NCBI GenBank assembly: GCA_963714275.1
Contig: CAVQNT010000002.1
Location: 192,001-256,000 of the forward strand
Source: Candidatus Bathyarchaeota archaeon
GTDB lineage: Archaea; Thermoproteota; Bathyarchaeia; Bathyarchaeales; DTEX01
Direction: 5' to 3'
DNA length: 64,000 bases
Program-made: the position numbers and the translations under genes
The notes under the pieces: model-generated
Databases searched by the model: none
What the model was told of the DNA's origin: nothing
Seen by the model: only the letters and a program-made list of their open reading frames with translations
In this document: one piece after another, positions 32,384 through 40,422 of the stretch
How the letters are laid out: each line of letters starts with the position of its first letter
How positions within the stretch are numbered: the stretch's first letter is position 1

Positions 32384-32592
32384 TATCCGAGTATGAACTG
32401 TAATAATATAAGAAGGTGTAATTAGGAGTTAACTATATTAAAGCAGCCGCTATACTTCTACTCACATAAGGAGGATAAGACAAAGTATGAGAATACAATA
32501 CCACAGCGAGAAGCCTATAGCCTACACTATTAGGAAGTCTCGCGAGACACCCAGCGTGCCAAGCACGATAATAATAAGCAGTTTTAACGGAG

Positions 32593-33805
32593 GTGAAAGC
32601 TAATGAAAAGCTAGACGAAGTCAAAGTATGGGTTGAGTCAGAGCCAGCTATCAGCAAGTGGCTCGCATCATTCAAGAATCCCAGCACCCGCATCAACTAT
32701 ACAATAGTGATGCAGACGTTCCAAGAGTTTACTGGCCTAAGAGGAGAAGACTTTCTCGCTGAGATAGATGCAGAGGAAGCCAAGCCGCTCACTCAGAGAG
32801 GAAGCATAGAGAAACGATTCGTTCCCTTCTTTGAGTGGTTCACATCTAAAGGCAACGCAGAAGGCACAGCGGTCGCTAAGATAGGCGCCATAATGAGCTT
32901 CTACCGCTTCTACAACTACCGCTGCAACTTCAGCCCGGGAAAGACTTTCAAAGCGGCTAAGAAGAACAGGGAAGTCAATATCACCAAAGAAGACGTTAAG
33001 AAGCTCTGTTTCAGCAGCCAAGAACCTTCGAGACAGAGCAATCATCCTAGTCCTCTACCAGAGCGGATGCGACCTAAGCACTCTTCGAAGCCTCAAAGTC
33101 AGGGATGTTCAGCATGGCTTAGAGTCAGGAGAACTTCCCCTTAGGCTTAATCTGAGACGCCGAAAAGAAGCAGTGGAATATCACAGCTTCATCTCAGTGG
33201 ACGCCATCGAAGCGGTCAGAGCTTACCTCAACGAGCGGACGAGAAAAGAAGGAGCTTTAGACCTAGAGTCTCCTCTCTTCATCAGAGAAAGAATCATCGC
33301 CATGTGGAGAGGAAAGCCGAGAAACGTAATCAGAGAAGCTCAGCAACATCCTCATAGAGAAGTTCTTCAGAGAAATCGCAATGGAGGCTAAGCTTCTTTC
33401 AGCAGAAGAGATGAGCAGAACCAACTGGAATCCCTTCAGAGCTCACGCGCTTAGGCGAGCTTTCGGAGATGCTTTAAGAGCAGCAGGCGCAGACTATGCA
33501 GCAATAGAGTATTTCATTGGGCACAGGACACCTATGCACGGCGCTTATCTGGGAAACATCGACCAAGCATACATCAAGGCTATGGATAATCTCAGCATCT
33601 TTGGAAGCAGCAACGAAGTGACAAACCTTAAGATAGCAACCCTCTCAGCAGAAGTGGATGGTCTTAAAACTCAGTGTCGGAAGTGCAAAGATTCGCCAAA
33701 GCAATTGAGCCTGTGCTTAGGGATTATCTCGACGACGATGCGAAGTTTAACGCGTTCAGCTACACAGAGAAAGCCGCGTTAGTTGAGCAGTTGAATAGGA
33801 AATAG
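32593..33805 (+). CDS. Tyrosine recombinase/integrase (frameshifted; SGCD instead of SGxR)
   Basis: RDRAIILVLYQSGCDLSTL, RRKE, RAHALRR, YFIGH, GAY across frames. Confidence 0.88.
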
Positions 33806-33807
33806 AG

Positions 33808-33841
33808 CGGAAAGGGAAGGAAGATTCCTCTTCTTTTTCGG
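33808..33841 (+). terminator. Hairpin and T-rich tract after the integrase
   Basis: GAAAGGGAAGGAA-GA-TTCCTCTTCTTTTTC. Confidence 0.45.
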
Positions 33842-34017
33842 TCTTATCCTCCGAAGAACGGGGAAGCCTTCCTCCCCCGCAATCCTCCCTTCTTATAAGC
33901 TTTAAGAAACTGCGTTAAGAAACTTACTTTCGTCTAGCTTTATATCTTAACATCTTGTAGTAGTTCACAACCTAGCAGCGTAAGCTGTGAAGGTTTCTAC
34001 CAAAGGAGGAATGATAT

Positions 34018-34392
34018 ATGAAAAAAGCTAACCCGCCGTCGGATGCAAACGAGGTTGAAGGTGAAGACTTAGTTGAAGTTGAAGGCGAATATGGAAGAAT
34101 AAACCCCGTAGTAGCAAAGATAGTGCTAAGCACCCTAGTCTACGACTTAGCATTTGACCACCAAGATGAATTAGCAGAAAAAATAAAGGAAGCTTGTGAG
34201 GCATTATGTTGGCAGCACACACCTACAAAGAAAGAACTAAAGAAGGCTGTACCATATTTCTTTGAACTCGTCAGACAAATAGACAACTGTGAAATCCTTT
34301 ATTTCGACATGGACGAAAAGTCGTTAGGGAAGATCAAAGTTTCAGGTATCCCGCAAGTCGTCAAAGACATTAAAAGAGAGAAATTAACATAG
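34018..34392 (+). CDS. Hypothetical protein (element 1)
   Basis: Strong GGAGG RBS; 124 aa ORF. Confidence 0.7.
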   Translation: MKKANPPSDANEVEGEDLVEVEGEYGRINPVVAKIVLSTLVYDLAFDHQDELAEKIKEACEALCWQHTPTKKELKKAVPYFFELVRQIDNCEILYFDMDEKSLGKIKVSGIPQVVKDIKREKLT

Positions 34393-34441
34393 ATTGGGGC
34401 AGAGACGTATACCCAAAAGACGAAGAAGAGGCAGACGTTGC

Positions 34442-34609
34442 ATGAACTTCAAGCCAATCGTGGCTAAGTATGACGACCACTGTTTCTGGTGCAAACGCCA
34501 CTTTGACATAGGGACGCCTATCTACTGGCGAAAGGAATCGGGGAAGTCAACCGTCATCTGCTTAGACTGCTGGGAAAGAGAGCAGCTCAGCCTCTTTAAT
34601 CATGACTGA
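34442..34609 (+). CDS. Small CxxC...CxxC zinc-finger protein
   Basis: HCFWC...ICLDC; GAGG RBS. Confidence 0.65.
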   Translation: MNFKPIVAKYDDHCFWCKRHFDIGTPIYWRKESGKSTVICLDCWEREQLSLFNHD

Positions 34610-38076: not shown

Positions 38077-38607
38077 CTATTTCTTTGTGGATGTTTTTCT
38101 TTTCTCTACTCTGGATTCTGCTCTAAAGATGAGTCTATGCATATTTTCAGGTTTAAAGAAATCTGGCTCGGTCCTATAAACATACAATAATTTTGCTGAT
38201 GGTTCTATGTTCTTAATAGGAATAATCTCTCTTAACATATCTATTTGCCCCTCATCTTCAATCTTGTGTTTTTTGCTTATTTTTTCAAGATTTAATTTCA
38301 CTATCTCCTTATTTCCCACAGTGGGAATAGTCAGAGATTTAATACTATTAAAAAAGATTAATGATATTATAGTAACTATAGTTAGAAGAACTGATGCAGA
38401 TTCGGCGGGAGTCAGACTAGAGATATAAGGAGATATCATGTTCAAAAGTGTAACTAGGAAAACAAACATTAAACCCACAAAGAGTATATAGGCAAAAAAG
38501 AAAAATGAGAGATTTTGTTTTGTCAGAGATGGTTTTTTAAATTCGTCATCCACAATTTTTACAAGTTCTTCTAAAGAATACCCTATCTTCTTTGGTTCTT
38601 CGGTCAT
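38077..38607 (-). CDS. Two-TM membrane protein, AT-rich
   Basis: Two long hydrophobic segments followed by a soluble domain. Confidence 0.7.
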   Translation of the reverse strand: MTEEPKKIGYSLEELVKIVDDEFKKPSLTKQNLSFFFFAYILFVGLMFVFLVTLLNMISPYISSLTPAESASVLLTIVTIISLIFFNSIKSLTIPTVGNKEIVKLNLEKISKKHKIEDEGQIDMLREIIPIKNIEPSAKLLYVYRTEPDFFKPENMHRLIFRAESRVEKRKTSTKK

Positions 38608-38757
38608 GTCAATCACAAGAACCAATCATACCAATACTAAGCATTAACTTTTCCCTCTTTTTCTGTTTCTCTTTTTGCGGAAACTTGGAAATATTAAGGG
38701 TATTGTATGATGCTGAGAATAAATTCTTCTTCCGCTCAGTTTCTTCTGGTGATGTTG

Positions 38758-38949
38758 ATGTTTGACGAGTTGATCTCTTGGCTTACTCAGCAGTGGTTAA
38801 GTCTTCTCAAGTGGTATTCTTCCCTAGGCTTCAACGGCCACGTCATCTTTGAATTGGCTTTTCTTGCTGGTCTTATCGTGAGTCTCAGCATCCTTGCGCG
38901 CAGCATCATATCCCGGGTTAAGAAACGTATTGAGAAACCTCCCTTTTAA
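38758..38949 (+). CDS. Small single-TM protein
   Basis: GGTGA RBS; hydrophobic FELAFLAGLIVSLSIL with basic tail. Confidence 0.55.
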   Translation: MFDELISWLTQQWLSLLKWYSSLGFNGHVIFELAFLAGLIVSLSILARSIISRVKKRIEKPPF

Positions 38950-39106
38950 CCGCCTCGGCTTCAGGAATAGGAGGTTTGGCGATATCAACAGCTCCTGTTG
39001 TGCACCGCCTAGAGAGAACGACACTCTCGCCTCCTGCCTATAGAAGCCGAGGTCTCTCATCTTCCCTGCGAGCAAAAGTAATTTATAAATTCTTCTTCTG
39101 CCTAAG

Positions 39107-39514
39107 TTGCTTGGTGATATTGTGGAAGTTCTTTCTGAAGTCGTCGTGAAAGAGAATCTTGGGAATCCATCAATCCCTTCAAGCCAGCATCTTTGTCCTG
39201 TATGCGGCTCTGCTCTTGCTGGTGTGAATCATAAGAGTTGGTCGTGCTCAAATTTGCAGTGTCCTGTGACGAGGGTGGTTTTTAGCGACGATAGGGTTGC
39301 AATGTGGACTAAAATTGAGAGAAAGGGCGAGGCTTATGGGACTTATACGCGTGTAGTTTTTAACATTGGGTGTTTTAATCGTCATCATAGAGAGTGCAAA
39401 CTGTGCGGTAAGCCTTTCGTAGCAGGGGACAAAGTGACTAACCGCCACGGCAGAAACTTAAAAAGTTACGAATTATTTCACGAGCACTGCTACGAGGCTT
39501 CAATAATAAGGTAA
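39107..39514 (+). CDS. Zinc-finger protein
   Basis: CPVCG..C....C and CKLC...HEHC. Confidence 0.7.
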   Translation: MLGDIVEVLSEVVVKENLGNPSIPSSQHLCPVCGSALAGVNHKSWSCSNLQCPVTRVVFSDDRVAMWTKIERKGEAYGTYTRVVFNIGCFNRHHRECKLCGKPFVAGDKVTNRHGRNLKSYELFHEHCYEASIIR

Positions 39515-39623
39515 ATGGTAATGCTCTCAAATAAGACCGCAGGGATTCTATCATCCCTATGCTTGCTCTGCTTTCTTGGGATATGCATCATCTTATCGAA
39601 GAGAATGAAGAAGGTGCCTTAAG

Positions 39624-40223
39624 ATGTCTGAAGCTGATTTAGCCTTCTTCGGCGAGAGGATTGCCAAGAGGCCTAATCCCTCTATCTCTGCGGAAGAGGG
39701 TAAGAAAGACTTAGACTTTAAGAAGCGGTATGAAGCTAGAAGAAAGGAGAGGCTTGAAGAATTCAGAGACTGGACTTTCGATAGCTGGAAGACTAAAGGC
39801 TGGAAGCCTACAGTTGAAGGAGAGAAGATTAGTCCTATCCTCCATGCGGTGTTGATATCTGAGTTCTGCTGGGGCGTGGGTATGGTTGAGTTGGCTGATG
39901 GCCTCCGCCTATCCAGTGCCACGACCTACAACCACATTAAGAGGCATAACAAGGATGTTCAGACGGTTGGCTCTTGTCCGCTATGCATTCGTGGCATTCC
40001 CTACGCTGGCGACTTAATAGATATCTATTGTGAGGCTGAAGTCCAGCTTGGCATGCGCCTTCGAGAAGAGCTGATGATTGAGGATAAGGTGAAGGACTTA
40101 GATAGAGATGCGTCTGATGCAGTGGTTGACGAGTGGTGTGCTGCAAGGTTCGACCCGCTTGAAAAGAAGTACAGGAGTAGAACGCAGCTACTGTTTAGAC
40201 GTCCGCTTTTTAGGCATTTATGA
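39624..40223 (+). CDS. HTH-containing protein
   Basis: MVELADGLRLSSATTYNHIKRH followed by CPLC. Confidence 0.7.
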   Translation: MSEADLAFFGERIAKRPNPSISAEEGKKDLDFKKRYEARRKERLEEFRDWTFDSWKTKGWKPTVEGEKISPILHAVLISEFCWGVGMVELADGLRLSSATTYNHIKRHNKDVQTVGSCPLCIRGIPYAGDLIDIYCEAEVQLGMRLREELMIEDKVKDLDRDASDAVVDEWCAARFDPLEKKYRSRTQLLFRRPLFRHL

Positions 40224-40422
40224 CTTTATTTGCGTTTCAATGTTTAGCGAGCCTTATAACCACCACTACTAAGTACAAATTCAAAAGTTTTCTATTTTCG
40301 TTGCTGGCACTCTATGCATTACGTAGGCATATGCAAAATGATGCATAATATAGGTGACTACCATGTAAACCTTAATATAATATTATATTTATAATTCTGG
40401 GCTATGCATGGTTTTGATGGGT

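Follow-up and report, generated by a model that had tools for sequence, protein, structure and literature searches.

A 7,969-bp site-specific integrative element in a Bathyarchaeia genome, probably of the cryptic integrated element kind

Our analysis concerns a 64,000-nucleotide stretch of the genome of Candidatus Bathyarchaeota archaeon (NCBI GenBank assembly GCA_963714275.1, contig CAVQNT010000002.1, positions 192,001 to 256,000 of the forward strand), referred to here as the window, in which a small mobile element sits at positions 32404-40372 (7,969 bp), with a GH2 beta-galactosidase gene on its left and a UDG-like gene on its right. That this is an integrated mobile element is strongly supported: it encodes a tyrosine recombinase, and both relatives and near-identical strains lack it, with the gap falling exactly at an 8-bp repeat. 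A preliminary description of the window had proposed a small integrated element in a block of ~8 kb at 32400-40400; both the block and its integrated nature are real, and the ends given there lie within 30 bp of those determined here. The explanation that we favor, and consider probable, is a site-specific integrative element of the kind represented by the cryptic integrated elements (CIE) of Thaumarchaeota, which the excerpted text of Krupovic et al. 2019 (PMC6563490) presents as integrated, equipped with an integrase and devoid of viral or conjugative hallmarks. Tested for these three features, the element showed an insertion bounded by repeats and absent in relatives, an integrase, and no viral or conjugative hallmark among the families searched. 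By nature it could be a small integrative plasmid, or else a virus or satellite that cannot yet be classified; the element is probably intact.

Insertion and exact ends

The ends of the element were placed with contigs that carry the empty site, and they coincide with two copies of a short direct repeat.

32404-32411: attL core, the left-hand TAATATAA of the 8-bp direct repeat, 20 nt upstream of the start codon of the beta-galactosidase gene (32383)
40373-40380: attR core, the right-hand TAATATAA, 42 nt past the stop of the UDG-like gene (40423)

Contigs of three public metagenome runs were compared with 32000-40800, and in two of the three runs (X2 and X3, from two studies) one contig each fuses position 32403 to position 40373. 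These contigs skip 7,969 bases, and the 8 letters at the junction fit both sides. The contig from X3 shows 0 differences over 404 bases on one side and 1 over 87 on the other, while that from X2 has a depth of 17.3. When window 29000-44000 was compared at the DNA level with 40 related genomes, 12 of them matched in the flanks, and none of the 40 matched the interior of the element (3413-11417 of that query). All three same-genus genomes with both flanks on one contig have an empty locus: the flanks are 33 bp apart in G004 and ~700 bp apart in G002, and in G001 there is ~1.2 kb where the source genome has 8.8 kb. The comparison of lacZ-UDG loci that had been suggested in the preliminary description therefore yielded an empty locus in each of these three same-genus genomes, and the exact 8-bp att core came from the X2 and X3 contigs.

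The left flanking gene (29318-32383, minus strand, 1,021 aa) encodes a complete beta-galactosidase of family GH2, matching five Pfam domains (E 2e-108 to 2e-17), and the right flanking gene (40423-41031, minus strand, 202 aa) matches the Pfam UDG superfamily at 22.6 bits, just below the cut-off of 24.3. Between them lie ~8 kb of short open reading frames (ORFs) on both strands. The G+C content of this block ranges from 0.31 to 0.50 per 500 bp and is ~0.43 overall, close to the 0.444 of the contig, and the two flanking glycosidase genes have a higher G+C content than the block. No tRNA gene occurs anywhere in the window, so the target is intergenic, and a search of 31500-41500 against Rfam gave no match at E<=0.1. 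One copy of the element is present in the 2.64-Mb genome; matches of 19 and 24 nt to it elsewhere in the genome fall in ordinary sequence. When attP is rejoined in silico, the core lies between the imperfect inverted arms GTAAACCTT and AAGGTGTAA, matching at 7 of 9 positions, which would have the look expected of tyrosine-recombinase binding sites.

The spacer between the two chromosomal genes looks like a variable spot, being empty in G004 and occupied by the element here, and in G002 (contig C33, 5157-5684) a gene for a 175-aa GNAT acetyltransferase (PF00583, E 7e-16) stands in the element's place. Next to the G002 beta-galactosidase gene are the 18 letters ATATAATATTATATTTAT, the same 18 letters that are found at the right junction of the element, which fits insertion into an ancestral AT-rich spacer.

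Tyrosine recombinase

The gene nearest the left end encodes the recombinase.

32593-33805, plus strand: tyrosine recombinase of ~400 aa, defined by three tblastn segments that tile full-length homologues and by weak Pfam and PHROG matches

The gene has its full length: the three segments are collinear, lie in frames +3, +1 and +2 and contain no stop codon when aligned with homologues of 415-484 aa from same-class genomes. The frame changes near 33000-33020 and near 33293-33330; a possible third break near 33670 is an impression by eye only. The weak family matches are to Pfam PF00589 and to phrog_1. The gene starts 181 bp inside the left end, with the att core upstream of it, and it is not split between the two ends of the element. 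The catalytic HxxR, GH and Y are kept as RAHALRRAF, IGH and HGAY in frame +2, and these align with the motifs of homologue L019, which in turn align with those of XerA (4A8E). In box I (G-L-R-x-S-E), by contrast, an Asp occupies the position of the first catalytic Arg: the sequence is SGCDLST in the window and SG(M/S)D(V/I)(S/A)T in homologues L017-L019, and the Asp of L019 pairs with the XerA Arg in the HMMER alignment. To our knowledge, all characterized tyrosine recombinases have the first catalytic Arg.

This substitution marks an integrase subfamily of 415-484 aa in same-class genomes, in which Asp (SGxDxST) stands for the first Arg and HxxR, His and Tyr are kept. Examples are as follows.

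Window 33020-33080: SGxDxST segment of the element's integrase
L024, 17082-18329, minus strand: SGxDxST integrase
L026, 2367-3809: SGxDxST integrase
L027, 12283-13719: SGxDxST integrase

If this Asp-bearing subfamily is truly active, its recombination chemistry would be worth study. The neighborhoods of eight distant integrase homologues in other same-class genomes have the integrase alone in common. At L024 (G050, contig C1, ~11800-18330), the closest full-length homologue adjoins a 315-aa primase-large-subunit-like protein (PF04104, E 1.3e-5), together with a 786-aa ORF without a Pfam match and small basic ORFs; this locus is probably a different integrated element that bears a replicase.

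Search for viral hallmarks

Capsid, portal, terminase, packaging ATPase, replicase, relaxase and secretion proteins were sought in Pfam, PHROGs, NCBIfam and PADLOC, and within the range of homology that HMMER can reach none was found. The PHROG scans covered 17 ORF pieces at E<=0.05 and, at E<=10, a set of 5 that overlaps with the 17 in three pieces; the Pfam scan covered 19 pieces. No ORF matched a virion family in the PHROG or Pfam scans, no conjugation gene was among the matches in the four collections, and no ORF of the element matched a P-loop or AAA+ ATPase family. Apart from the integrase, the longest frame has ~270 codons. The observation in the preliminary description that terminase, portal, HK97 capsid, replicase and packaging ATPase are lacking holds for all families searched.

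The same description had gone further and proposed a spindle-type provirus, in part on the strength of a hairpin protein with two transmembrane (TM) segments and a basic ParB protein encoded on the minus strand.

36777-36990, minus strand: two hydrophobic pieces of one helix each in different frames (36856-36990 and 36777-36899), from the TM scan
35855-36672, minus strand: ParB/sulfiredoxin-fold protein (Pfam, PHROGs, AF2 and VIA-align), with the first frame at 36040-36672 and the C-terminal part in another frame

The two hydrophobic helices of the first feature are present, but they form a single hairpin of ~66 aa only when an indel is bridged, and are otherwise two mini-ORFs. Piece 1 matched nothing in PHROGs at E<=0.05 and gave two chance-level matches at E<=10 (E 0.4 and 0.92), neither to a virion family; piece 2 gave no match at E<=10. 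A conserved chromosomal gene of 84 aa next door (41146-41400) has the same two-helix topology, so this topology is not diagnostic of a capsid protein. Of the hairpin originally described, the helices therefore stand, whereas the single protein depends on bridging the frameshift and matches no virion family.

The basic protein does contain a ParB/sulfiredoxin N-terminal domain, as had been described. It matches PF02195 (ParB_N) at E 9.7e-4 and 19.6 bits, below the cut-off of 26.3, and five ParB-like PHROGs with a best E of 5.9e-7; its core matches 102 viral ParB/sulfiredoxin proteins at E<=1e-3. AF2, run with three sequences, placed a ParB-N core at residues 46-122 with pLDDT 75-86, and residues 123-210 as long helices at pLDDT ~30-40. 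In comparisons with VIA-align the core scored Z 10.3 with SerK, 10.1 with sulfiredoxin, 9.3 with PadC, 8.9 with KorB and 7.1 with pNOB8 ParB-N. The core fold is thus the same as in known ParB/sulfiredoxin-fold proteins (Z 7.1-10.3), and a GxxRxxA-like box is present here. In contrast to the ParB of ParABS systems, no helix-turn-helix (HTH) or dimerization domain and no ParA partner was found, HTH and ParA families having no match anywhere in the element in Pfam or NCBIfam; the protein has a basic N-terminal tail (10 K/R in 46 aa) and an amphipathic region instead. The latter is rich in Gly, Ala and Lys and has an amphipathic periodicity of 11 residues, with a hydrophobic moment that peaks at the angle of an 11/3 helix (0.69 at 98.2 degrees versus 0.55 at 100). 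Within the part of the gene that encodes this region lies a 21-nt direct repeat (36145-36264) with 99-nt spacing and 86% identity; as 99 nt fits three units of 11 residues, the amphipathic region looks internally repeated. Compared with homologue P0002, the C-terminal 43 residues continue in another frame at 79% identity, which places a frame break near 36100. Among 5.77 billion proteins only two full-length homologues were found, and one homologue, 52% identical, is on a contig of 8,925 nt.

On this evidence a compact fusellovirus-like spindle provirus, with the hairpin in the role of capsid protein and its DNA condensed by the basic ParB-like protein, is highly improbable. In its favor, the bridged ~66-aa hairpin has an N-x-T motif in its turn and lies directly upstream of a basic protein with a DNA-associated fold, and spindle proviruses with a tyrosine integrase do exist in Bathyarchaeia, as the excerpted text of PMC10848311 reports. 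Against it stand the hairpin pieces that match no virion family, the shared topology of the chromosomal gene and the ParB/sulfiredoxin fold of the basic protein. Further, no VP2, VP3, VP4 or AAA+ ATPase and no large ORF was found among the families and frames examined, the att core lies outside an unsplit integrase gene, and the element is about half the size of the smallest fuselloviruses known to us. We therefore do not uphold the spindle-type assignment.

Other genes of the element

The remaining genes are short, and most match no family in Pfam, PHROGs, NCBIfam or PADLOC.

34018-34392, plus strand: orf124, acidic, no family in the four collections
34394-34609, plus strand: orf71, basic N-terminus and a CxxC...CxxC Zn-ribbon read from the sequence, beginning 2 nt after the orf124 stop
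34610-34870: AT-rich spacer (G+C 0.35-0.40) with a 36-bp imperfect palindrome and 2.1 copies of TAATAAATA (34851-34869), from a repeat search and TRF
34871-35230, plus strand: orf119, no significant family in the four collections
35378-35671, plus strand: orf97, no family
37245-37817, plus strand: NERD-like protein with a putative nuclease fold of the PD-(D/E)xK type, from exhaustive phmmer and the Pfam NERD matches of its homologues
38077-38607, minus strand: orf176/182, membrane protein with two TM segments and soluble N- and C-terminal parts, from the TM scan
38707-38949, plus strand: orf80, small membrane protein with one hydrophobic segment, from the TM scan, no family
39107-39514, plus strand: orf135, CxxC Zn-ribbon motifs (PF03119 Zn-ribbon, E 2.5e-4, below the cut-off)
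39624-40223, plus strand: orf199, possibly HTH, with conserved Cys residues, kept in related elements

The integrase, Zn-ribbon ORFs and small membrane ORFs (three or four small membrane proteins) that had been described are all present in the ORF list and in the Pfam, PHROG and TM scans. The description of Zn-finger and HTH genes stood in part: CxxC Zn-ribbons occur in orf71 and orf135, but the HTH of orf199 is suggested by language-model (atlas) leads only, at 0.81-0.84, below the trust level of 0.9. AF2 with five sequences gave no confident model of orf199 (pLDDT 44.8), and its four homologues among the 5.77 billion proteins, 62-74% identical, are on short metagenome contigs. Besides its Zn-ribbon, orf71 has weak matches to function-less PHROGs only. 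The product of orf119 would be helical, read from the sequence alone, and the exact proteins of orf119 and orf97 recur on a second contig.

For the NERD-like ORF, exhaustive phmmer gives 8 proteins at E<=1e-3, itself included. Pfam NERD (PF08378) was matched by three of the six others scanned (P0018 at 23.9, P0019 at 23.6 and P0021 at 20.8 bits; cut-off 22.1), and the window protein itself has no PF08378 match. In the alignment GDxD and Glu are kept and the Lys of the motif is replaced by Gln, and the homology reaches ~20 codons upstream of the first start codon (37383). The leads for orf182 point weakly to two-TM effector modules of defense systems: PADLOC PycTM at E 0.0035, and an atlas score of 0.90 to the cluster 'SMODS and SLOG-associating 2TM effector', with low recognition. 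None of the non-integrase genes that were searched has more than a handful of relatives.

In the ~260-bp spacer, the 36-bp imperfect palindrome at 34662-34697 contains two nested ATATCC/GGATAT pairs, and the copies of TAATAAATA sit just before orf119; the spacer may be a candidate operator or origin.

Relatives of the element

Two kinds of relative were found. One contig of 7,995 nt, nearly the size of the element, carries near-identical orf182 and ParB genes. In X2, where contigs were counted at 85% identity or more, there is also a diverged relative that has the integrase, the start of orf135, orf199 and the right end in common with the window; its likeness to the window ends at 40384, 4 nt past the core. 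The element-sized contigs and the X2 relative fit either free circles or copies in other contexts, or assembly-graph branches. The change of flank past the core in X2, and a core that is AT-rich and only 8 bp long, would also agree with a tyrosine-recombinase transposon of loose target choice, for which the 8-bp repeat would serve in coupling or as a target and not as a dedicated att site. We give this explanation very little credence: the element is present once in the whole genome, and the flank difference in X2 could be explained just as well by the attP side of a circle or by simple divergence.

Searches for further members of the family yielded little. Pattern scans for the ParB-like protein and orf199 found no locus in IMG/VR, JGI metagenome contigs or 185,579 species genomes, and a 30-nt stretch of the element has no exact match in IMG/VR. 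The ParB-like protein, orf199 and the integrase core gave no tblastn match in 50,697 phage records, nor did the ParB-like protein in 72,556 plasmids. Three distant integrase homologues searched against IMG/VR returned one locus at 23% identity, which is uninformative, and a simple k-mer scan of the genome found no CRISPR array. From these searches the family appears to be very rare.

These results bear on the possibility of a satellite or helper-dependent element, which would integrate by itself, lack capsid and replication genes and be packaged or mobilized by a resident virus. The small size of 7,969 bp, the integrase and the lack of a recognizable replicase, capsid or packaging gene are in keeping with it, and there is precedent in the pSSVi and pSSVx plasmids that ride on fuselloviruses in Sulfolobus. 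However, no gene is shared with any virus record (three proteins against the 50,697 phage records, and the IMG/VR scans), and neither a helper nor any feature resembling cos or pac was recognized; we regard a satellite as rather unlikely.

Assembly error or decay

The preliminary description had left room for a decayed element, and the frame breaks are the evidence on this point. Core chromosomal genes in the window are split as well: a Pyr_redox_2 gene at profile position 142/143 (overlapping ORFs 7867-8748 and 8712-9266, minus strand), GalT (galactose-1-phosphate uridylyltransferase; 21688-22026 and 22292-22615, plus strand) and an Lhr-type helicase (3491-4501 and 4465-4794, minus strand), so that, of four gene pairs checked in the 56 kb outside the element, three are split. 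Indel errors seem to be genome-wide in this assembly, and pseudogene calls in this genome consequently need read support. The near-identical copies point the same way. On the 7,995-nt contig, the orf182 copy (P0008) differs by two residues, and the ParB gene (P0015) is broken at codon 88, where the window copy is intact and conserved. In the NERD-like protein P0016 (93% identical), the first 28 residues follow the other reading frame of the window, a further break site. As near-identical copies are broken at different places and no homologous segment contains a stop codon, indel noise fits better than decay, and the gene breaks are probably assembly indels.

We nonetheless weighed a defective remnant, that is, an element that integrated and was then inactivated by real frameshifts in several genes, those for the integrase and the ParB-like protein among them. 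Three breaks are certain, two of them in the integrase gene and the other in the ParB-like gene, further ones are possible at the two-TM locus and upstream of the NERD-like gene, and breaks are denser than in the flanks. Yet the chromosomal genes are split likewise, the near-identical copy is broken at different sites with no stop in homologous segments, and the empty sites in near-identical strains suggest that gain or loss was recent. A remnant is therefore unlikely and the suggestion of decay doubtful; with the frameshifts being mostly assembly indels, the element is probably functional.

Proposed mechanism and significance

In the integrative element that we favor, the recombinase would exchange strands within the 8-bp core common to the circular attP and the chromosomal attB, and the exchange would duplicate the core, leaving a TATA-like sequence before the beta-galactosidase gene. 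The right-end genes (the orf135 Zn-ribbon protein and orf199) and the integrase would form a conserved backbone that probably controls integration and excision. The variable middle would hold accessory genes, namely the ParB/sulfiredoxin-fold protein with its amphipathic tail, the NERD-like protein and the small membrane proteins. Without a replicase, the element may be copied passively in the chromosome, or it may recruit host replication once excised.

Several observations weigh against this proposal. The Asp at the Arg-I position leaves the activity of the integrase unproven, and the TAATATAA core is short, with 112 occurrences in the genome. Instead of an episome, the 7,995-nt contig may represent a branch of the assembly graph, and no circular junction was found in the contigs of the three runs, which contain only 5-6% of the sampled words of the element. 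With at least three confirmed in 8 kb, breaks are denser inside the element, so some real decay is possible; that some of the element's frame breaks are real and not assembly error is a substantial possibility, though not the probable one. Finally, a novel virion or replication protein may hide among the function-less ORFs.

A more novel reading is a minimal membrane-based archaeal virus or vesicle-borne replicon of ~8 kb and of a kind not seen before. Here the basic tail of the ParB/sulfiredoxin-fold protein and its amphipathic helix of 11-residue repeats would link the DNA circle to the membrane, the particle would be made of the two-TM hairpin and the remaining small membrane proteins, the recombinase would integrate the genome without the canonical first Arg, and the contigs of 7,995 and 8,925 nt would be free genomes. 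As a whole, we judge this reading very unlikely. The element is weak as a candidate virus and should not be counted as a new spindle virus.

Bathyarchaeia are abundant archaea of sediments, and we know of no genetic system for them. The element adds a very rare gene set to their poorly known mobilome. It is precisely bounded, apparently still mobile, 8 kb in size and has a known attB and attP, and so is the kind of starting point for a vector that the excerpted text of PMC6563490 has in mind in suggesting small integrative replicons as a basis for archaeal shuttle and integration vectors.

Comparison with known systems

The fuselloviruses, with which the element was initially compared, differ from it in several ways. 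In Fuselloviridae the gene for the SSV-type integrase holds attP and is split on integration, whereas here the att core lies 181 bp upstream and the gene is whole. Fuselloviridae also have a VP2-like DNA-binding protein, an AAA+ ATPase and a large end-filament protein, none of which was found in the element, and their VP1 (~70 aa, two hydrophobic helices) has a counterpart in topology only when the frameshift is bridged, with no PHROG virion match. The satellites of Sulfolobus fuselloviruses, pSSVi and pSSVx, are circular plasmids of ~6 kb without capsid genes; pSSVi has its own integrase, and these plasmids have either recognizable replication genes of the pRN type or an SSV-type integrase that becomes split when the plasmid integrates. 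Compared by description, they and the element are alike in being small and without recognizable capsid genes, but the integrase of the element is unsplit and no replicase was found in it.

A spindle provirus already described from Bathyarchaeia is Huangdivirus ('Huangdiviridae', Duan et al. 2024), for which the excerpted text of PMC10848311 lists homologues of VP1-3 of Fuselloviridae, an AAA+ ATPase and a glycosyltransferase, with gene numbers running to at least 40. Both it and the element are integrated and encode a tyrosine-recombinase integrase, but VP1-3, the AAA+ ATPase and the glycosyltransferase were not found in the element, a comparison made by description only and from the same excerpts (PMC10848311).

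The CIE, likewise compared by description, differ from the element in host class, in the Asp that it has at Arg-I and in its target, an intergenic TATA-like 8-mer. According to the excerpted text of PMC6563490, CIE range from 2.6 to 98 kb, many are without an identifiable replication protein, such as NitUzo-E2 (2.6 kb) with an integrase, a winged HTH protein and two unknown proteins, and they possibly hide new viruses or plasmids. The element shares with the CIE its flanking repeats and an integrase as the only hallmark gene, and its 8 kb falls within their range of sizes.

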